DNA of 13,367 nucleotides from positions 1 to 13,367 of the IMG/VR virus record IMGVR_UViG_2713896773_000002, one strand, 5' to 3'. The notes under the pieces are model-generated. The model saw nothing but the letters and a program-made list of their open reading frames with translations, was not told the DNA's origin and made no database searches. The DNA is from a virus (Duplodnaviria; Heunggongvirae; Uroviricota; Caudoviricetes). A program made the position numbers and the translations under genes. Of the stretch, positions 2,185 to 13,185 are shown piece by piece. Position 1 is the first letter of the stretch. Every line of letters begins with the position of its first letter.

Positions 2185-3117
2185 TTAGCTGACAGTAACG
2201 GTGCATGCCGCCGACGTTAGGGTCTTGCCTGCGGCGTCAGTGACTTCGCAGGTATAAACGCCAGCATCACCGGATGAGACAGACGAAATGTTGAACGTCG
2301 AGGCGGTTTTGCCCGGAATTGCGGAGCTTCCTTTCTTCCACACGTAGGTGTAAGGGGCTGAGCCGCCTTGCATAACGACGGCTAAATCGAGCGCATCTCC
2401 AACACTAACTGCTTTGGTTGATGGCAGATCAGTCAGGAACGCCAGCGGCGTAACGGATGAATCGGCGATCGGGTAAATCTGCATATCCGATTCGAAGTTC
2501 ATGCGCGCTTCGTTGCTTTCCACGGCGTTGATTTCGGTCTTAGGCACCTTCTGGAAAGACACTTTGGCAGAGTAATAACGGTCCGCTTTGCCGCGCGGGT
2601 TATGGAACCACACAGCAGTGGTGTCGCTGGATTCGTCAAGTTCACTCAGACGCTTGTAAATTGCCAGCAGCGGATCGTGCGCGAAGGTGTAGACCTGCAC
2701 CACGGCGTTTTTGAAGGTCGGGATGGTACGGGCCTTATCGTCTTCAAGGAACTGCACGCTGATGGTCTGCTGGTCACCACCCTCTGTGGAGAGGGTCATC
2801 ACCTGCGGCATCGTGATCCACGTGTCGATTTTACGCAGCGTGCCCGCGCCAGTGCCTGCCGGGAATTTGGTGGTGTCAGAGGTATCGAACGAATCCAGCA
2901 CGATTTTGGTACCGGCTACGGATTTAACGCGCAGCACCATATTATCGAGTTTTAGCCAGCCGGAGCTCACCTGCACTACGTCGCCCGCCAGGATGCCAGC
3001 GGCAGATGCAACAGTCAGTTCGCATTCAGTAGCGTTAGAGGCAGCGGTAAAGGTGATGGGAGCCTGATAGGCCTTGGCCACGTTAACACGCGAGCCGTTA
3101 GGGATTGCGAATGCCAT
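2185..3117 (-). CDS. major tail (tube) protein with C-terminal Ig-like domain
   Basis: 310-aa ORF, ATG at 3117..3115 with RBS AGGAG 6 nt upstream; located between tail terminator-like gene and chaperones G/GT; C-terminal ~80 aa (…YTYVWKKGSS…GVYTCEVTDAAGK…TVTVS) looks like an Ig-like fold. Confidence 0.6.
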   Translation of the reverse strand: MAFAIPNGSRVNVAKAYQAPITFTAASNATECELTVASAAGILAGDVVQVSSGWLKLDNMVLRVKSVAGTKIVLDSFDTSDTTKFPAGTGAGTLRKIDTWITMPQVMTLSTEGGDQQTISVQFLEDDKARTIPTFKNAVVQVYTFAHDPLLAIYKRLSELDESSDTTAVWFHNPRGKADRYYSAKVSFQKVPKTEINAVESNEARMNFESDMQIYPIADSSVTPLAFLTDLPSTKAVSVGDALDLAVVMQGGSAPYTYVWKKGSSAIPGKTASTFNISSVSSGDAGVYTCEVTDAAGKTLTSAACTVTVS

Positions 3118-3140: not shown

Positions 3141-3163
3141 TAAAAAACCCGCCATCTGGCGGG
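3141..3163 (-). terminator. intrinsic terminator-like hairpin between tail terminator gene and major tail gene
   Basis: Minus strand reads CCCGCC-AGAT-GGCGGG followed by TTTTTTATTA (stem 3148..3153 / 3158..3163), immediately after the TGA at 3166..3164. Confidence 0.5.
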
Positions 3164-3613
3164 TCAGTAGTCAGCGCGGTACTGCATGCTGACGGGAATG
3201 GTGTAGGTTATGGAGCCACTGGACCCGTTGGACGCCGAGGTTGGCCGGTCCTGGATGGGTTGTCTCACCTGCGGCGGCCCATTGATATAAACAGTCAGGT
3301 CACCATCCACCAGCGCAAGCCCTTCAGGAAATGCATCAGCGACAGATTTAGCCAGCCCTCTGGCCTGCGTCACGCCGCTGCCTGCTGGCGCAATGATGTT
3401 GAGCTGCAGGATGCCCTGATAGGTTCGCAATTGACCTTCCAGGTCTTGCCCCACCGTCTGTGCCGGCAGAACATAAACACGCCCGTATGGTGAGCTATCC
3501 GGGGGAGTAAACGGTATGTTCGGCCAGGCTACGGGCAGCCCAAGCGATAAGCAGATAACCGCAATGCGGCTCTCCAGTAGTTCAGCAATTCGCATTGACT
3601 GGTCACTGGCCAT
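3164..3613 (-). CDS. putative tail terminator / tail completion protein (gpU-like position; possibly DUF4128-type)
   Basis: 149-aa ORF with ATG at 3613..3611, directly upstream of the major tail gene; contains a WPNIPFTPP motif that I recall from tail-terminator-like families. Family assignment is from memory. Confidence 0.4.
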   Translation of the reverse strand: MASDQSMRIAELLESRIAVICLSLGLPVAWPNIPFTPPDSSPYGRVYVLPAQTVGQDLEGQLRTYQGILQLNIIAPAGSGVTQARGLAKSVADAFPEGLALVDGDLTVYINGPPQVRQPIQDRPTSASNGSSGSITYTIPVSMQYRADY

Positions 3614-5580: not shown

Positions 5581-5604
5581 GAAAACAAAGGGGCCGAAGC
5601 CCCC
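5581..5604 (-). terminator. intrinsic terminator after the major capsid gene
   Basis: Minus strand reads GGGGC-TTCG-GCCCC followed by TTTGTTTTC (stem 5590..5594 / 5599..5603), immediately after the capsid TAA at 5611..5609; the T-tract overlaps the RBS of the next gene. Confidence 0.65.
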
Positions 5605-5608
5605 TGGG

Positions 5609-6748
5609 TTAACCCATGATGATGGCGGAATGACGTGGCGCCACAGCAGCCACACCCCATGCCAGGCCCACTTCATAACGCACCTGACGGTACTGGCGGT
5701 ACAGCGCCACCTGGAAGGTGATGCCAGATACCGGGTCGGTCACATTCATGACGTCATCAGCAGTATCGCCACCTTCAGGCATCGCCGGGGTACGGCTGGC
5801 CAGCAGGAATGCCCCGCGGTCAAACGCCATGTTCGGTACAAATTCGCTCAACACAGTGACATCAGCCTGGTCTGCCAGATCCTGACGGAGGCCCGGCGCG
5901 CTAATAGTGATAGTGGAAGACGTAGCCGCAACGACCAGATACTGATTGTCATCACCGGCGAACTTCACCGCAGTACCTGCAGCAATACCGCCGGTGCCAG
6001 CAGAGATAGCGATGATGATATCGCCCTCTTTCTTCGCGCCATTGACCTTATAGCCAGCAGCAGCGCTTTTCGCGGTACGCTTGATGCTGAAGGATTCGTG
6101 GAGGTTGAAGCCCATGATGCGACCGATAACACCTTCACGCAGCAGTTGGTCGGTTCCCGCTTCGTTCGCTTTGAAGAGTACAGCCTGTTTACCACGGATG
6201 GATGCCATCGCTTCGCCACCCAGCACCATACGCAAATCAGTAGTCGGCGCACCGTTATCGGTCAGGATTTGACGCGCCAACGCAGCATCAGTCAGATCGT
6301 CTTTGATGCTGAACGGGGTATTCTTTGGCGCGCCAACAGCGCGGGAGGAGTTGAGGTACAGCGCAGCGAGATCCGCATCCACTTCGTTCGCCAGCGCACG
6401 GAAAGCCTGCTTGAACTGGTCAGCCAGGATGGTGTTGTAGGTACCAGCCGGGCCCAGAGCCAATTGCTCTTCACCATTCCATTTCACCGGGGCCATTTTG
6501 GATTTGGTGATTTTGACATCCACACCACCGATGGTCTGGTCGCCAGAATTAGGCGCTGAAGGTCCAGGGACAATATCTTCAGTGGTGGCTGCAGGTGCGA
6601 CTGGCGCACGTACGGTCTGGTCTTTTGCAGCAGCATCCGCTTTCGCGTCACGCGCCACCGCAGGAATAAAACCAGTTTGCTCGCGGGACACTACGTACAG
6701 CGCGGTATAGATGGTCGGGATCAGACCAGTAAGGGTATTGCCTGCCAT
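5609..6748 (-). CDS. major capsid protein (possibly P22 coat-like family)
   Basis: 379-aa ORF, ATG at 6748..6746 with RBS AAGGAG; directly downstream of a scaffold-like gene and followed by a strong terminator. Family call is from recalled similarity of the N-terminal region. Confidence 0.65.
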   Translation of the reverse strand: MAGNTLTGLIPTIYTALYVVSREQTGFIPAVARDAKADAAAKDQTVRAPVAPAATTEDIVPGPSAPNSGDQTIGGVDVKITKSKMAPVKWNGEEQLALGPAGTYNTILADQFKQAFRALANEVDADLAALYLNSSRAVGAPKNTPFSIKDDLTDAALARQILTDNGAPTTDLRMVLGGEAMASIRGKQAVLFKANEAGTDQLLREGVIGRIMGFNLHESFSIKRTAKSAAAGYKVNGAKKEGDIIIAISAGTGGIAAGTAVKFAGDDNQYLVVAATSSTITISAPGLRQDLADQADVTVLSEFVPNMAFDRGAFLLASRTPAMPEGGDTADDVMNVTDPVSGITFQVALYRQYRQVRYEVGLAWGVAAVAPRHSAIIMG

Positions 6749-6765: not shown

Positions 6766-7518
6766 TTAATCGACGATGCTGACGCCGTCTTTCAGCGCTG
6801 CTTGCTTGCCAGCGTTATCCAGGGAATCAAACGCATCGCGTTTCATGGTTTTTTGCCCGGCCTGGTGCTGCGACTGGTGAGAACCGCCGCCGCTGTTACC
6901 GGACGCTTTGAGGATGTAATCTTTCTGCGGATGCGACTCGACCAGAGACTCCAGGGCCTCATCAAAGCTGGCTAACTCGCCTGGCTTGGTGCGAGAGAAC
7001 ACCTTGTTGCCCTGCCCGTCGTACGCCACGACTTTGCCGTCTTCGATTTTGAAGTTCTGACCGAAGTGGGAACGCACGAACTCAGCCGGGATCGCCATCT
7101 TCTCTGAAATGAATTTGGAGCCACCGAAGCGCCCGCCGATCATCTCGTCGTAGAGCTGGCTTTCGAGCTGTTTGGTCTTGCCGTTCGCTTCATCCAGCTG
7201 CTGCTGGAATACCTTGGTAATCTCAGCCTTAACCTGGTCAACAGCGCCAGCGTCGATCAGTTTTTTCTGGTCGATTTTGGTCATCATCTCCAGGGCTTCG
7301 AGCGCCTTGGTCGGATCGGTGATGCCAGAGAATTTCGCGAGACTGGCTTCCGCCGCCTCCTTCGCTTCACGGTGAGTTTTAGCTTCACCATTCAGGGAGG
7401 TGATTTTGGTCATCGCTGCGGCTGCGTCGAACGGGATTTCTTTGCCATCATCATGGATGTACACAGGCATACCGTTTTCAACGACCACATTTCCGTTAGC
7501 ATCAAGTTTCAGTTTCAT
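6766..7518 (-). CDS. putative capsid scaffolding protein
   Basis: 250-aa ORF, ATG at 7518..7516 with RBS GGAG; charged, Lys/Glu/Ala-rich and coiled-coil-like; lies between the MuF-like gene and the capsid gene. Confidence 0.5.
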   Translation of the reverse strand: MKLKLDANGNVVVENGMPVYIHDDGKEIPFDAAAAMTKITSLNGEAKTHREAKEAAEASLAKFSGITDPTKALEALEMMTKIDQKKLIDAGAVDQVKAEITKVFQQQLDEANGKTKQLESQLYDEMIGGRFGGSKFISEKMAIPAEFVRSHFGQNFKIEDGKVVAYDGQGNKVFSRTKPGELASFDEALESLVESHPQKDYILKASGNSGGGSHQSQHQAGQKTMKRDAFDSLDNAGKQAALKDGVSIVD

Positions 7519-7599: not shown

Positions 7600-7624
7600 A
7601 AAAAAGGCCACCCGAAGGCAGCCT
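7600..7624 (-). terminator. intrinsic terminator-like hairpin upstream of scaffold gene
   Basis: Minus strand reads GGCTGCC-TTCG-GGTGGCC followed by TTTTTTAT. The stem has two G-U wobble pairs that would be C-A mismatches on the plus strand, so it is only stable in the minus-strand transcript. Confidence 0.45.
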
Positions 7625-7858: not shown

Positions 7859-8323
7859 TTAGAGAATTTGCCAGTCATCAGCCAAGACGTCGGTTTGGCT
7901 TGGTGCCCAAGGCACGCGAGCGCCATTTGGGTATGGCATAGCACCATTGCCCGGCACAGGATAAATTAAACGAATGTACGGCAGGTCCACAGATGGCGAC
8001 TGCTGGACCAGCTCAAGCCACAGGCCCTTGCCGTTCCAGCCTGCGCGGGTGACACGCTTGCCTGATTTCAGGGCTTCGACAGCCAGTCCGAAGCTAAGCC
8101 CCGCCACTGGTCGGTAGGCTTTGTCGAACACATCTTTCGGACTCCAGCTCACATACCCGTTGAAGCGATCGGTGTTTGGCTTTCCGCCATCCAGATACTC
8201 GACGAGATAACCTTCATCACTTCCGTTTTCGTCACTTGGTAACTCCCAACCACGAAAGTCGTTATATGCCAGACGGGTCATCGGGTAAGCATTGATGAGC
8301 TTCACGCCAATATGTTGAGTCAT
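7859..8323 (-). CDS. DUF2829-like (Tad2-like, anti-Thoeris sponge family) domain protein with N-terminal extension
   Basis: 154-aa ORF, ATG at 8323..8321. C-terminal half (…EALKSGKRVTRAGWNGKGLWLEL…VPWAPSQTDVLADDWQIL) matches the motifs I recall for DUF2829. This is a recollection, not a search result. Confidence 0.5.
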   Translation of the reverse strand: MTQHIGVKLINAYPMTRLAYNDFRGWELPSDENGSDEGYLVEYLDGGKPNTDRFNGYVSWSPKDVFDKAYRPVAGLSFGLAVEALKSGKRVTRAGWNGKGLWLELVQQSPSVDLPYIRLIYPVPGNGAMPYPNGARVPWAPSQTDVLADDWQIL

Positions 8324-8343: not shown

Positions 8344-9447
8344 TTATTCAAATGCCGACGCATCCACGCGGCGCAATTCGTCCAGGGTAAGGAACTCCCC
8401 GGCATCATTGAACATCTCCGGCACGGTGATTTTGCCGTCACGCAGCATCTGCGCGCGAGTAACGCCCAGCACCTGCTCCTGCCGCGCGTAAGGCTGCCTC
8501 GCAAGCCATTCGGCATAGCTGGTATGCGCTGGCACCTGTCCGTCCATTGAAGCGCGCGTGGCGTTGCTCAGCTCGCCTGAGGATATTTGCATTTCCTCCC
8601 ACGATTTAGTGATCAGGATTTCGCAGGAGCGGCAGCAAAAGTGGATTTTGCCGGGGCCGCGCAGATACGGAATTGCATGGCCCAGCGGCTTTCCATCGAG
8701 CGAGTAGAGTTTGCGGTCGCGGATGATGCACCACTGGCTGGTGTGGGTGTCCAGAGTCGAAGACCACTGTTTGGCCTTCACGATATCGCTATTGGCTTGT
8801 GCAAACTCCTGGCGCGCCGTTGCTGCCATATGGTTCACCGCGGTGCGGGCAACAACAGCAAGGTCACGACGTGAGGCATTGATAACCCCGTCTTGGCGGT
8901 TAAGTTGCGGCGTGCCGGCGACGCGCTTCACGATCTGCTCGACGGTTTCACCCTGAAGAAATCCGGTACGCACCGCACTGGTGATTTTATCCAGCCGATC
9001 GGATTCAAGCTTTTGGCCCCACTCTTTCAGCAATCTCCCCTGAAAAGGTTGCGCCACCGCAGAGGTGTAGACCTGCTCTGGGGCAATGCTTTGCAGCGGG
9101 ACGTGTTTCAGCACCTGCCGGGGTATAAGGCTGCTGAACAGGTCCATCTGATACCCGGTCTCATAATCCGTGTAACGTGCCAGCTCACGCGCCAGGGAAG
9201 AATTAACCGGTTCATAGGCCTGCTGATTCAGGTCGCGCACGCCAGCCAGCAGCGAAGCTAGGCGGCGGGCGCTGTAGGTGTCGGCACGCTTGCCGTCCAG
9301 CAGCACCAGCAGTTTTGCAGCAAGGTCAGCATCCAGCCTGTTCAGCAACGACACCATGCGCCGGGCGACGCCAGTACCGTAGCGGTTCACATAAAGCCCG
9401 TGCGCTATGGTTTCGTCCTGAAGCCTGTCATTGACGGAACGGGCCAT
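8344..9447 (-). CDS. phage head morphogenesis protein (SPP1 gp7 / Mu F-like minor head protein)
   Basis: 367-aa ORF, ATG at 9447..9445 with RBS GAGGTG. Contains …LDGKPLGHAIPYLRGPGKIHFCCRSCE…, which I recognise as typical of MuF-family proteins. Confidence 0.75.
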   Translation of the reverse strand: MARSVNDRLQDETIAHGLYVNRYGTGVARRMVSLLNRLDADLAAKLLVLLDGKRADTYSARRLASLLAGVRDLNQQAYEPVNSSLARELARYTDYETGYQMDLFSSLIPRQVLKHVPLQSIAPEQVYTSAVAQPFQGRLLKEWGQKLESDRLDKITSAVRTGFLQGETVEQIVKRVAGTPQLNRQDGVINASRRDLAVVARTAVNHMAATARQEFAQANSDIVKAKQWSSTLDTHTSQWCIIRDRKLYSLDGKPLGHAIPYLRGPGKIHFCCRSCEILITKSWEEMQISSGELSNATRASMDGQVPAHTSYAEWLARQPYARQEQVLGVTRAQMLRDGKITVPEMFNDAGEFLTLDELRRVDASAFE

Positions 9448-9459
9448 ATCACACCTCGC

Positions 9460-9975
9460 CTATCGTTCTGGTATTAGCATCGTCACAGCGCGATATGCGG
9501 CGCTTGCTGGCATTCTTGAATAGCCGACACCTTTGCATCTTCCGCATTCTTTCTCAACAACTCTCCCCCACAGCTCTGTTTTTGATATATCAACCGCACG
9601 GCCTGTACCGTGGCAATCTCTGCACCTTGCTCCCGGCGTCGCGGCACTACGGCAATAATCCGCATAAGCGAATGTTGCGAGCACTTGCAGTACCTTTGCC
9701 TTAGTATTTCCTTCAAGCTTTGCCACACCACGGTATTTCCCCGATACCTTGTGTGCAAATTGCATCAGATAGTTGATAGCCTTTTGTTTGTCGTTCTGGC
9801 TGAGTTCATGCTTACCGCAGAATGCAGCCATTCCGAATCCGGCTTGTGATTGCGCCATCCCCATAGCAGCCATCACATCAGTACCGGAAAGAGAGTCAGA
9901 AGCCGTAGCCCGTGGTGAGTCGCTCATCATCGGGCTTTTTGGCGAATGAAATTTAGCTACGCTTTCGAGTCTCAT
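9460..9975 (-). CDS. Q: antitermination protein Q (lambda Q-like), apparently truncated at the 3' end
   Basis: 171-aa ORF that reads like lambda Q over its first ~169 residues, including the zinc-finger region CRDCHGTGR…CGRCKG. It ends …TMLIPER-TAG where I recall lambda Q continuing for ~40 more residues. Start overlaps the ninH stop (ATGA). Confidence 0.7.
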   Translation of the reverse strand: MRLESVAKFHSPKSPMMSDSPRATASDSLSGTDVMAAMGMAQSQAGFGMAAFCGKHELSQNDKQKAINYLMQFAHKVSGKYRGVAKLEGNTKAKVLQVLATFAYADYCRSAATPGARCRDCHGTGRAVDISKTELWGRVVEKECGRCKGVGYSRMPASAAYRAVTMLIPER

Positions 9976-10160
9976 CGTCTTCCCCTCTTGCCCTGTTTGA
10001 CCATCAGGACGCCGTTAACTATTACATGACGCTCGCCTTTGCTGTCTCGGTTGTACTTGAGCACTGTTCCTCTTGCGCAGGAAAGCACCCTTGCCACTTC
10101 GGTCTGATTGCCTCGTGTCTGGATAAGAAGCTCTGGTATCGTTTGAATTGTGGCGTTCAT
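9972..10160 (-). CDS. ninH: NinH-like small DNA-binding protein
   Basis: 62-aa ORF with a …GNQTEVAR…SRGTV…KY…IVN.VLMV… pattern resembling lambda NinH; lies immediately upstream of Q, with start overlapping the rusA stop. Confidence 0.7.
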   Translation of the reverse strand: MNATIQTIPELLIQTRGNQTEVARVLSCARGTVLKYNRDSKGERHVIVNGVLMVKQGKRGRR

Positions 10161-10522
10161 ACGTTCTCCAGTTCGGTGATTTTTATTCCAAGCCTTCCGC
10201 CTGGTACTTTCACACCACGAATTACGCGAATGTCATCGAATTGCTCGTCGTCTTCCGCAAATCCGGCGTGGATAAGGGAGTCGAGTAAACCTTTCAGGAT
10301 GTTATCGAGGTCGCGGCGGCGGGAGTCTGGAACGTCTGCGATGACTTTGATGCGGAGTCGTGATTTGGTGAAAATATCTAACTTGAGTTGGTGGATGATT
10401 TGCTGAACGTCTTTTCGGTATTTCTGGCCTTTATCGCTGATGTAGTATTGGCTTCCCCGTCTTCGCCAGTAGGTATTCACCGACGGCGGGTATGGAAGCA
10501 CAAACTGATATTCGTTCACCAT
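10157..10522 (-). CDS. rusA: Holliday junction resolvase RusA
   Basis: 121-aa ORF; …[13 protein letters not shown]… and …[32 protein letters not shown]… match the RusA family pattern as I recall it. Confidence 0.8.
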
Positions 10523-10592: not shown

Positions 10593-10928
10593 TCATACTT
10601 CCCGATCTCCCCATCTCGCTTTCCACTCCAGAGCCAGTCTCGCTTCGTCTGACCACTTAACGCCACGCTCTGTACCGAATGCCTGTATAAGCTCTAATAG
10701 CTCCGCAAATTCGCTTACACGCATCCTGCTGGTTGACTGTCCTATTACCACAAAGCCATTCCCGGCAAGGTTAGGAACAACGTCCTGCTGCTTTAATGCT
10801 GCGGTAAACACACACTTCCAGCTTTCTGCATCCAGCCAGCGACCATGCCATTCAACCTGACGAGAGACGTCACCTAAGCAGGCCCATATCGTCTGCCACG
10901 CGCAGCAGGTGCATTTGATGCTGTGCAA
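10593..10928 (-). pseudogene. ninB: ninB (orf) homolog lacking its 5' end; only TTG start available
   Basis: From [27 protein letters not shown]… onward it is near-identical to lambda NinB as I recall it, but the ~45-50 N-terminal residues are absent. An in-frame TGA lies at 10943..10941, the only start is TTG at 10928, and the 5' end overlaps the helicase 3' end by 55 nt. Confidence 0.55.
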
Positions 10929-12241
10929 ATCTGTCTGGCTTCATCCTGGTCACATGCAACAAAGTGTCCGTTACAGAACCGCTGGTAAACCGTACCAAGC
11001 GAGCCAAAACGGTTTTTCGTCACAATGATTTCAGCAAATGGCGCGGCGCTACTGTTCTCGTCATATACAGCTTCCCGATAGAGCATGATGATTGAGTCTG
11101 CGTCCTGTTCAATGCTTCCTGAATCACGCAAATCTGCGTTTGTCGGGCGTTTGTTTGGTCGCTTCTCAACATCGCGCGAAAGCTGACTCAGGGAGATAAC
11201 AGGCGTTTTCAGGTCTTTCGCCATCGCCTTCAGGCTTCCTGAGATATGAGCAATTGCGAGGTCGTTGCGGTCTGCTTTCGGCTTCTCAATCAGGCCAAGA
11301 TAATCCGCCATGATGAGTGACAGGTTTGGATTTTCCTGTTTGTGCCGTTCTGCGATTGAGCGTATTTCTTCGACCGATAACCGCGAGGCATCGACTACCC
11401 ATACATCCAAATCTGCAAGCTGACTCATGCCGTTAGCAACGCGCGCCCAGCCCTCGTCATCCATCGATGCAGGATTTCGCAGCACGCTAACCGACATCCT
11501 CCCGGCGTTGGCAATGCTTCGCTCTGCAATCTGCAATGCGCTCATTTCCATTGAGAAAATCAATACTCCGCGCCGGACGTCAGAACCAGGAATAACGCGG
11601 CTTGCAACGCCTTCGGCAATCTTCAGCGCCAGTTCGGTTTTCCCCATACCAGGACGAGCAGCGATTATCACCAGGTCTTCCGCGTTCATCCCTCCGGTGA
11701 TGGCATCAAGTTCTTCGATTCCGGTCTTCAGGGTATCTGACTCTTCTCCGTTCCTCAGACGCCTGTCAAGCGTGTCAGTGTAGTCAGTAATGATTTCCCC
11801 TAACCGTACAGGTTTAACCTCGTCACGGGGCTTTCTGATGGCTGAGAGACGCTTTACAAGCTCGTCCATCGCCTGACTCGATGTATCGATGGTTCCGCTC
11901 TGAATTGGTTCACGCATTTCATCCATGATTTCCAGCACCAGACGGCGGTGATAGTTATCCGCGACCATTCCGGCATATCCCTTCAGGTTTGCGGCACTCG
12001 GGCAGTTCTTACTGGTCATCAGGATTGACGTGAAATGCTCCTCTCCGCACGCCTCGGCAACCATCAGCGCGTCGATTAGGTTTCTGTTTCTCGCCTGCTT
12101 GCGGATAACCTCGAAGGCTTTCCGGTAGAGCGGAATTGAAAACGCTTCCGGCTCCAGCGTTGCCAGAACGTCACTGGCAGTTGGTGTTAATCCACCAATC
12201 AGCAGGCCACCGATAACGCTCGCTTCGATATCCTGTCTCAT
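10874..12241 (-). CDS. replicative DNA helicase (DnaB family; phage P-gene functional analogue)
   Basis: 455-aa ORF with Walker A (…[13 protein letters not shown]…) and typical DnaB-like C-terminal features; start overlaps the stop of the O-like gene (ATGA). Confidence 0.85.
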
Positions 12242-13185
12242 GCTATCCCCCTGTCTGCAAACTTCCCTTCCCGTACTCCCGTTAACGAATCTTCCCTCAG
12301 CAGGTAATCAAAATCTGCCGTCCAGCCAGTGTCGTTGTCTCCGAAGTAAAACGGCTTGGCCTGATGTACAAACGCCCTGACATACGCTCTGAAACCGTCC
12401 ACGTTTGGCGTTTTCAGTTGCGGGATGATTTTCTTCAGGCGGCGTTTGCGTTTCTCGTTGACCGCAACAGCGTGTGGCAGTCTGTCACCGACTTCGGTGT
12501 TGTAGGCGTTCAGGAAGGATTCGTAGTCGATTCGTTCTGCCTTGCGACGTTCATGTTTAACCTGCCCATCGCCTCCCCCATTGGGGGGTAGGGGGGTATT
12601 ATTTATATTCTTGTTAATACCTTCTTGTTCATGATGTGCGGTTGTTTGTGCGGCTTCATGTGCGCTTTCATGTGCGGAATGTACGCTGAAAGCCGCGCCA
12701 TTACTGACTTCATCATGTGCGGCATCATGTGCGGTTGTTTGTGCGGCTTCATGTGCGGGTGAATTGTCCATTTTTTGAGCATATTCATGGTAATTTGTGA
12801 TGGTGATCACACGACCTTTTTGCTTCTCTCCATCAATGGTGATCATCCCCTCTTTCACAAAAACCTGAAGCATCCGCTCAACCTGATCACGGCTTGCCGG
12901 CTTGCCATGCCTGTCGCATAACTGAAGACCTAAATCAGCTGCTGTCACAACCAGTTGACCGGGTTGCAGATGCCATTCATGACCTTTGAAATTCGCTTTG
13001 TATGGCTTTCTGGCGGCATTCAGGAGAAGGTTTTCCCACAGGGTGCGAAGATAAACATCTTTCGCCCATGACTGTTTCAGAATGCTCCGGTACAACGGAA
13101 TGTAACCAGTTTTCTGGTTCTCCATCCTGTTGCTCCTGCGCTCGTGTGCGGCGCTGAAATCGTAGATTTTTGCTGTATTGCTCAT
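12238..13185 (-). CDS. replication initiation protein (lambda O-like) containing an internal iteron array
   Basis: 315-aa ORF, ATG at 13185..13183; N-terminus [10 protein letters not shown]… resembles lambda O (MTNTAKILNF…). The central linker is encoded by the repeated DNA iterons and it sits immediately upstream of the helicase. Confidence 0.7.
12634..12758. repeat. putative replication origin iterons: two clusters of four 8-mers (cATGTGCGG / tTGTGCGG) on a 12-bp period
   Basis: Copies start at 12634, 12646, 12658, 12670 and at 12715, 12727, 12739, 12751. An exact 31-nt direct repeat occurs at 12634..12664 and 12727..12757. AT-rich DNA flanks both sides (12598..12629 and 12761..12800) and a G/C inverted repeat CCCCCA-T-TGGGGG sits at 12575..12587. 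Confidence 0.6.

Follow-up and report, generated by a model that had tools for sequence, protein, structure and literature searches.

The window, that is the whole stretch of DNA analysed, is the complete 13,367-bp contig LDYI01000171.1 (reverse-complemented) of the Escherichia coli AW1.3 draft genome (assembly GCA_001309485.1). AW1.3 (accession LDYI00000000) is a highly heat-resistant beef isolate, sequenced as HiSeq 100-bp paired-end reads from 300-bp inserts at 579x and assembled with ABySS 1.3.4 (2015) into 184 contigs (PMC4563881; BioProject PRJNA277539). The contig has no ambiguous bases, each of its ends lies inside a phage gene, and all of its genes are on the minus strand. In order of transcription they are the replication protein O gene (12238-13185), a DnaB-type helicase gene (10874-12241), a fragment of NinB (10593-10928), a fragment of NinD, RusA (10157-10522), NinH (9972-10160) and a truncated lambda-type Q antiterminator gene of 171 amino acids (9460-9975). 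Then follow a recombination junction (9472-9475, placed by three-way alignments) and a remnant of a DUF4055 portal gene (9449-9472), comprising its last seven codons and stop and carrying the Shine-Dalgarno sequence of the next gene, which is intact and encodes a 367-residue minor head protein of the MuF/SPP1 gp7 family (8344-9447). Beyond MuF lie genes for a Tad2-like protein (7859-8323), a DUF6651 protein (6766-7518) and a P22-type coat protein (5609-6748), the head-tail connector genes, the genes for a tail tube protein with Ig-like domains (2185-3117) and a KilA-N protein (1438-1968), the tail assembly chaperone genes and the start of a tape-measure gene (1-755). Pfam matches in the head module are MuF (PF04233), DUF6651 and P22 coat. 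The head and tail structural genes are present and uninterrupted; from MuF as far as the tape-measure gene they agree in order and length with those of the HK639-like prophage L012 and of L006. Rfam and tRNA scans of the window returned no matches, including none to the tRNAs or late-region RNA elements that some relatives carry after Q.

The Q reading frame ends in AVTMLIPER followed by TAG (9460-9462), and MuF begins 12 nt past this stop behind a ribosome-binding site, as the earlier note on this DNA had described. The protein is identical to residues 1-169 of lambda Q (PDB 7UBM chain Q, 207 amino acids) but for the single substitution A131S, and then diverges; the loss of some 40 C-terminal residues that the note had supposed is thus a loss of 38 (residues 170-207). 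The two residues after 169, glutamate and arginine, and the stop come from portal codons read out of frame. The likeness to lambda Q (PDB 7UBM, 4MO1; also HK97 gp69) covers the torus-forming N-terminus, the Antiterm domain (PF03589, E = 3.5e-44, profile positions 1-87 of 87) and the Cys4 zinc ribbon, whose cysteines C118, C121, C144 and C147 are all retained in the alignment to 7UBM. The context of RusA and NinH upstream of Q is the same as in HK97.

The zinc ribbon forms the arm of lambda Q (residues 114-152), whereas the body is built from residues 61-113 and 153-207 and contains the helix-turn-helix, formed by H4 and H5 (PMC9388147). Residues 182-197 contact NusA, residues 195-207 refold upon loading, and L202 and T206 contact the flap-tip helix of the polymerase (PMC9388147). 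The protein requires a complete four-helix body, the H4-H5 helix-turn-helix and the C-terminal contacts with RNA polymerase and NusA, and none of these is complete in the AW1.3 stub: in comparison with lambda Q, it retains the zinc ribbon and the torus segment at the N-terminus, lacks H5 and the contacts with NusA and the flap-tip helix, and ends in Glu-Arg. We would predict that its four-helix body does not fold properly and that, with the second helix of the helix-turn-helix missing, it cannot bind the Q-binding element. Its target is gone as well. Lambda has pR′, the Q-binding element, tR′ and a lysis cassette 3′ of Q, whereas in AW1.3 no cognate late promoter with Q-binding element and terminator lies just 3′ of the gene, and the region downstream of Q in HK97 has no similarity anywhere in the contig by blastn or tblastn. 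The AW1.3 Q gene is a pseudogene fragment.

Three-way alignments place the crossover between Q and portal sequence at 9472/9473, with the AT at 9473-9474 common to both parents, a microhomology of 2 nt. The homology to lambda and HK97 Q stops at 9473, and that to the 3′ end of the portal gene starts at 9472-9474. On the minus strand the junction reads GATGCTAAT before the crossover and ACCAGAACG after it; the Q parent reads GATGCTAAT and then CCCAAACC, the portal parent GCTGGAT and then ACCAGAACGATAGGCGAGGTGTGATATG, and the window across the crossover GATGCTAATACCAGAACGATAGGCGAGGTGTGATATG. The shared AT sits within a patchy ATnCCAnA similarity of the two parents. The alignments bear out the recombination junction proposed in the earlier note, although it lies about 10 nt to the right of the position given there (9460-9465). 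To the right of about 9465-9473, the sequence matches the stretch with Q, NinH and RusA at 96-99% identity in 1,647 E. coli genomes and 128 phage records, HK97, mEp235, HK542 and ECP1 among them; to the left lies an HK639-like head-tail module.

The portal remnant at 9472-9449 (ACC AGA ACG ATA GGC GAG GTG TGA) encodes TRTIGEV and a stop (9449-9451), as in the intact DUF4055 portal. The note had asked whether the ER-stop is the end of a portal gene; it is not, since the portal is read in a different frame and ends in TRTIGEV, and ER-TAG appears in the Q frame because the last portal codons are read out of frame. The MuF start codon (9447-9445) stands behind GGCGAGGTG, in which GAGGTG occupies 9457-9452, and in intact relatives MuF starts one base past the portal stop. 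On its sequence, the good ribosome-binding site is the coupling sequence native to portal and MuF, preserved by chance.

We found the same gene order wherever the portal-MuF junction is intact and the region upstream of it is visible, that is in HK639, VREC0761, ET729 and seven draft contigs, all seven encoding a MuF protein identical to that of AW1.3 (20 public contigs in addition to the window carry this protein): Q, holin, lysozyme, Rz, two small open reading frames (or Rha), metallopeptidase, terS, terL, portal and MuF. Lysis, terminase and portal genes thus lie between Q and the head genes in every intact relative examined, in agreement with what the note had taken to be normal. The three genes terL, portal and MuF are contiguous in all 12 complete E. 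coli genomes that carry the module, and a full-length portal gene stands directly upstream of the MuF relative in 80 of 80 IMG/VR loci. The module itself is collinear with that of HK639 from MuF to the tape-measure gene at 85% identity, and is collinear with HK639-like prophages (for example VREC0761, ET729 and L007-L014; the gene lengths of L012 are those of AW1.3). Twelve prophages from complete E. coli genomes cover at least 80% of it, 11 of them at 90-94% identity. What sets the HK639-like elements apart is that they have terS, terL and a 467-residue DUF4055 portal before MuF and a different type of Q, whereas AW1.3 keeps 24 nt of the portal.

None of the missing genes is elsewhere in the contig. 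Searches by blastn and tblastn with the Q C-terminus and post-Q region of HK97 and with holin, lysozyme, Rz, metallopeptidase, terS, terL and portal of relatives gave no matches, and no lysis, terminase or portal family of Pfam occurs among the called genes, which bears out the absence reported in the note. The holin, endolysin and spanin genes that an intact lambdoid late operon requires are lacking, and so are the terminase subunits and, its last 24 nt apart, the portal that should precede MuF. The note had also considered that intact phages might share an arrangement in which the missing genes come immediately outside the window. Such a placement is impossible here, because Q and MuF are only 12 nt apart and in intact relatives all of these genes lie between the two. 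The contig, moreover, runs unbroken through the junction, which argues against a second, intact portal-MuF copy of the module in the AW1.3 genome. What remains is a phage-derived element without genes essential for the lytic cycle, a defective prophage, and the note's proposal that it is packaging- and lysis-defective is supported by the gene content. If the parent resembled one HK639-like element, L007, the loss would amount to about 6.5 kb of late-region DNA and 117 nt of Q (about 6.6 kb).

Two further deletions lie just upstream, in the nin region. At 10517/10518, codon ~32 of NinD is joined to the start of RusA with TG microhomology, and 1,414 bp are missing relative to L005, a close relative of the early half; RusA has acquired a new ATG-GTG start (MVNEY...) and counts 121 rather than 120 amino acids. 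The junction at 10885/10886, again with TG microhomology, leads from the 3′ end of the DnaB-type helicase gene into the interior of NinB, and L005 has 781 bp here that AW1.3 lacks; the helicase counts 455 instead of 458 amino acids, and about 46 N-terminal profile positions of NinB are gone. Both junctions are unique to AW1.3 and have no match in IMG/VR. The three deletions share one polarity and lie in a stretch of 1.4 kb, downstream of the O gene's iteron-like repeats; they may be the product of one complex template-switching event or of successive decay events, and the two in the nin region fit the picture of deletional decay. Deletions of the nin5 type are known in lambda from the interval between P and Q, and like them the AW1.3 deletions shorten the non-essential nin region that lies between the helicase gene and Q; the endpoints, however, differ, in that they cut into the helicase 3′ end, NinB and NinD. 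We obtained no evidence that terminators were the target of the nin-region deletions.

The junction between Q and portal is absent from 5,426 complete E. coli genomes and 50,697 phage records, in neither of which does any record span it; its 30-mer and 20-mer have no match in GTDB representative genomes, nor its 30-mer in IMG/VR. The 20-mer has one match in JGI metagenomes, a chance hit: the contig is AT-rich and unrelated, and the sequence on either side does not align. The proteins derived from the three junctions are singletons among about 15 billion proteins: the 171-residue Q, the 121-residue RusA and the 455-residue helicase are each recorded on the AW1.3 contig only. Their clusters have 2,481-5,599 members, and nearly all of the members listed are of the full length of 207, 120 or 458 amino acids, apart from a few that are shorter, the majority of these being marked as partial by at least one source. 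In the 90%-identity cluster of Q (3,759 members), 11 of the 14 other members listed (40 read) have 207 residues, and members of 183 and 175 residues are labelled partial by at least one source. Full-length Q homologues that end naturally at this position, which would have spoken against the note's reading, were not seen among the listed cluster members, and we reject a naturally short Q family, as the 171-residue sequence is on one contig and the listed homologues mostly have 207 residues. Among the collections searched, the scar is found in AW1.3 only.

We consider it likely that the junction is a real, strain-specific scar of illegitimate recombination, left by a deletion within a lambdoid prophage of E. 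coli AW1.3. Such a deletion, using the 2-nt AT microhomology, would have brought codon 169 of a lambda-type Q up against the final 24 nt of an HK639-like portal gene. It would have removed residues 170-207 of Q, the late promoter pR′ with its Q-binding element, the terminator tR′, the lysis cassette (holin, endolysin, Rz), several small open reading frames, terS, terL, and the portal gene except eight codons. Three observations speak against this explanation: a single short-read draft contig carries the junction, three unique junctions within 1.4 kb are unusual and suggestive of an artefact, and the approximately 12 late-module relatives whose Q gene is visible have a Q of 254 or 269 amino acids and none the lambda-type Q of 207, such that the two halves may stem from two prophages.

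The last of these observations is an argument for a hybrid remnant, in which illegitimate recombination between two lambdoid prophages in the same cell took O, the helicase, nin and Q from a lambda/HK97-type element, and portal, MuF, head and tail from an HK639-type one. The late-module relatives with a visible Q also have nin regions of the YbcO/YlcG type rather than lambda Q and NinH, close relatives of the early half are joined to other late modules (for example a P22-type portal and terminase in L005), and the ends of the contig, both inside phage genes, suggest that other AW1.3 prophages share sequence with it. Of course, lambdoid phages are freely mosaic and a phage with lambda Q and an HK639-like late region may be unsampled, while two prophages at separate chromosomal sites could not recombine without deletion or inversion of the chromosome between them. 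The features of the contig favour neither two parents nor a deletion in one, and overall we think the hybrid unlikely. It is less probable still, and in our opinion very doubtful, that all three junctions are assembly or library artefacts of the ABySS 1.3.4 short-read draft and that the real genome is intact. Such a view draws on the restriction of all three junctions to one draft contig, on deletion variants of the module being seen only in draft and Logan assemblies (0 of 12 complete genomes), and on there being no independent AW1.3 assembly on record and no copy of the three junction proteins in Logan. However, de Bruijn assemblers join sequences only through k-mers shared in reads, and the parents share 2 nt at each junction; joining by read pairs would need fragments of about 300 bp to span sites 0.8-6.6 kb apart; and at 579x a competing intact path would have split the contig, yet it is continuous through three junctions. 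Microhomology of 2-3 nt is, in addition, typical of genuine illegitimate recombination. ABySS can also join blunt contigs by small overlaps, by default of at least five shared bases; we judge this an unlikely source of the junctions, with 2 nt shared, the sides kilobases apart and read pairs needed.

A natural functional design, in which the short Q drives the head genes and packaging and lysis are provided elsewhere or by a helper, as for a satellite or a domesticated particle, is scarcely credible. It could appeal to the ribosome-binding site of MuF, to the head and tail reading frames downstream, intact and collinear with functional relatives, and to RusA, which retains a start codon after its own deletion. 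Against it stand the occurrence of the arrangement in one strain only, the out-of-frame portal codons in which the Q stub ends, the loss from this stub of a helix of the helix-turn-helix and of the residues that contact polymerase and NusA, the disappearance of the late promoter, and the absence of portal and terminase from the contig; no signal of conservation or selection was found. A satellite or helper-dependent element as such was rejected, as no feature supports it and the arrangement is unique to one strain.

Two other assemblies with an identical MuF protein have different, independent deletions that also removed the portal, each with an unrelated left partner. In L006 (Logan ERR11812300), terL at nt ~853 is fused to portal nt ~1103 with TA microhomology, and in L009 (GCA_052844075.1) the 5′ end of a pL-operon gene is fused, with TAC microhomology, to the portal position used in L006. 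All three portal-side endpoints, that of AW1.3 included, thus coincide with TACCAG motifs, of which the coding strand of the 1,404-nt portal gene has only two (GGCTACCAGCC and CTGGATACCAG). Each motif is in the loop of a 4-bp mini-hairpin, a context shared by 0.9% of positions in the region. At the first site, the TACCAG allele is found in some relatives only (GCTACCAGCC, versus GCAACCAGCC or GCGACAAGCC). No common motif was found at the left partners or at the two nin junctions, which confines TACCAG to the portal side. Three events underlie the pattern, which was noticed post hoc, and the coincidence is unexplained. It could point to a break or stalling hotspot in the portal gene, at which a site-directed process recurrently makes portal-less prophages, with the three AW1.3 deletions as one multi-jump template-switch event; we find this quite unlikely. 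A nuclease might cut there, a Chi-like sequence might protect against RecBCD (site A has the complement GCTGGTAG), or the polymerase might stall and then switch template, and the multi-jump event might have occurred during abortive in-situ replication, with the deletions co-directional and just downstream of the phage origin.

If the junction is, as we think, a deletion scar in one prophage, the element should be capable of no antitermination, lysis or packaging, to judge by its gene content. A Q stub unable to bind DNA, and with no target site remaining, would leave the late genes without their switch, and neither cell lysis by the element nor DNA packaging nor a portal vertex would be possible. 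The retained head and tail genes would have no promoter of their own, and their only source of transcripts would be read-through from the early rightward operon (O, helicase, nin and the Q remnant). In a consensus scan of the minus strand we found no strong terminator between the right end of the contig and 7624, and good terminator hairpins at 7624-7605, 5605-5588, 3165-3146 and 1436-1421, the first three near the positions of annotated HK639 terminators. The hairpin at 7605-7624 is the first strong one 3′ of the junction and follows MuF and the Tad2-like gene, and without Q-modified RNA polymerase upstream read-through should largely stop there. Expression of the head and tail genes by read-through would then depend on N-type antitermination from outside the contig.

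The feature exemplifies the ordinary decay of prophages, a very familiar process. The cryptic prophages DLP12, Rac and Qin of E. coli K-12, which decay by deletion, offer the natural comparison: they too are lambdoid prophages inactivated by the loss of essential late functions, with junctions of a few nucleotides of homology. The AW1.3 element differs from them in having lost the packaging and lysis block and kept the whole head-tail block, and in that its remaining genes are 98-100% identical to those of intact relatives and free of frameshifts. Because of this identity and the lack of frameshifts the deletion event looks recent. A seemingly neat gene fusion with a good ribosome-binding site may, as here, be the chance product of where a deletion ended. 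Were a larger survey to confirm the clustering of endpoints at TACCAG, it would suggest a sequence-directed mechanism of prophage inactivation. As matters stand, the main use of the finding is the correct annotation of AW1.3, in which Q should be recorded as a pseudogene fragment, and the element is predicted not to be inducible to infectious phage.

The three portal-removing deletions are independent events with different left partners (Q, terL and a gene of the pL operon), and each terminates at one or other of the only two TACCAG motifs in the portal gene. The sites lie at 9465-9474 in the window, at 9696-9700 for L006 (Logan ERR11812300) and at 9699-9701 for L009 (GCA_052844075.1), L006 and L009 being two of the other assemblies with an identical MuF protein. 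Both motifs form the loops of 4-bp mini-hairpins. The TACCAG sites may be a deletion hotspot, but we spotted the pattern post hoc in three events. The 20-mer spanning the Q/portal junction has an exact match at 5625-5644 of the metagenome contig Ga0256828_1000902, which is AT-rich and unrelated. We rejected this as a true copy of the junction, as the flanks fail to align; the match is due to chance, and 20-mers are therefore not specific in a collection of such size.

Two further deletion junctions, each with TG microhomology, are found in the window. At 10885-10886, the DnaB-type helicase gene runs at its 3' end into the interior of NinB, with the loss of 781 bp (L005, a relative of the early half, as reference). 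This junction occurs in none of the complete E. coli genomes and is confined to AW1.3; the protein collection contains its 455-aa helicase product only once. The other, at 10517-10518, is unique and connects NinD to the start of RusA, having removed 1,414 bp that encode NinE, NinF, an antirepressor and DUF1364. It gives RusA a new start (MVNEY...) and a length of 121 rather than 120 residues. Within the O replication gene, four direct repeats with 12-nt spacing (12628-12770, units like TCATGTGCGG) encode the His/Ala-rich repeats of the O protein; presumably these are the iterons of the origin.

On the minus strand, the head-tail module also carries a Tad2-like gene and a KilA-N domain gene. 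The Tad2-like gene (7859-8323; PF11195, Thoeris anti-defence 2-like domain, E = 4.6e-20) directly adjoins MuF on its downstream side within the head module, a position kept in all the close relatives listed. The KilA-N domain gene (1438-1968), inserted after the tail tube gene and ahead of those for the tail chaperones, behaves as a moron, because some relatives (L008 and ET729) lack it and others (L007 and VREC0761) have a different gene in its slot. It has its own terminator-like hairpin at 1436-1421, one of four strong intrinsic-terminator-like hairpins on the minus strand of the late operon (7605-7624, 5588-5605, 3146-3165 and 1421-1436). The intact phage HK639 has annotated terminators near the equivalents of the first three. 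Intact phages need antiterminated polymerase at these late-operon hairpins, and the AW1.3 element can no longer supply it via Q.
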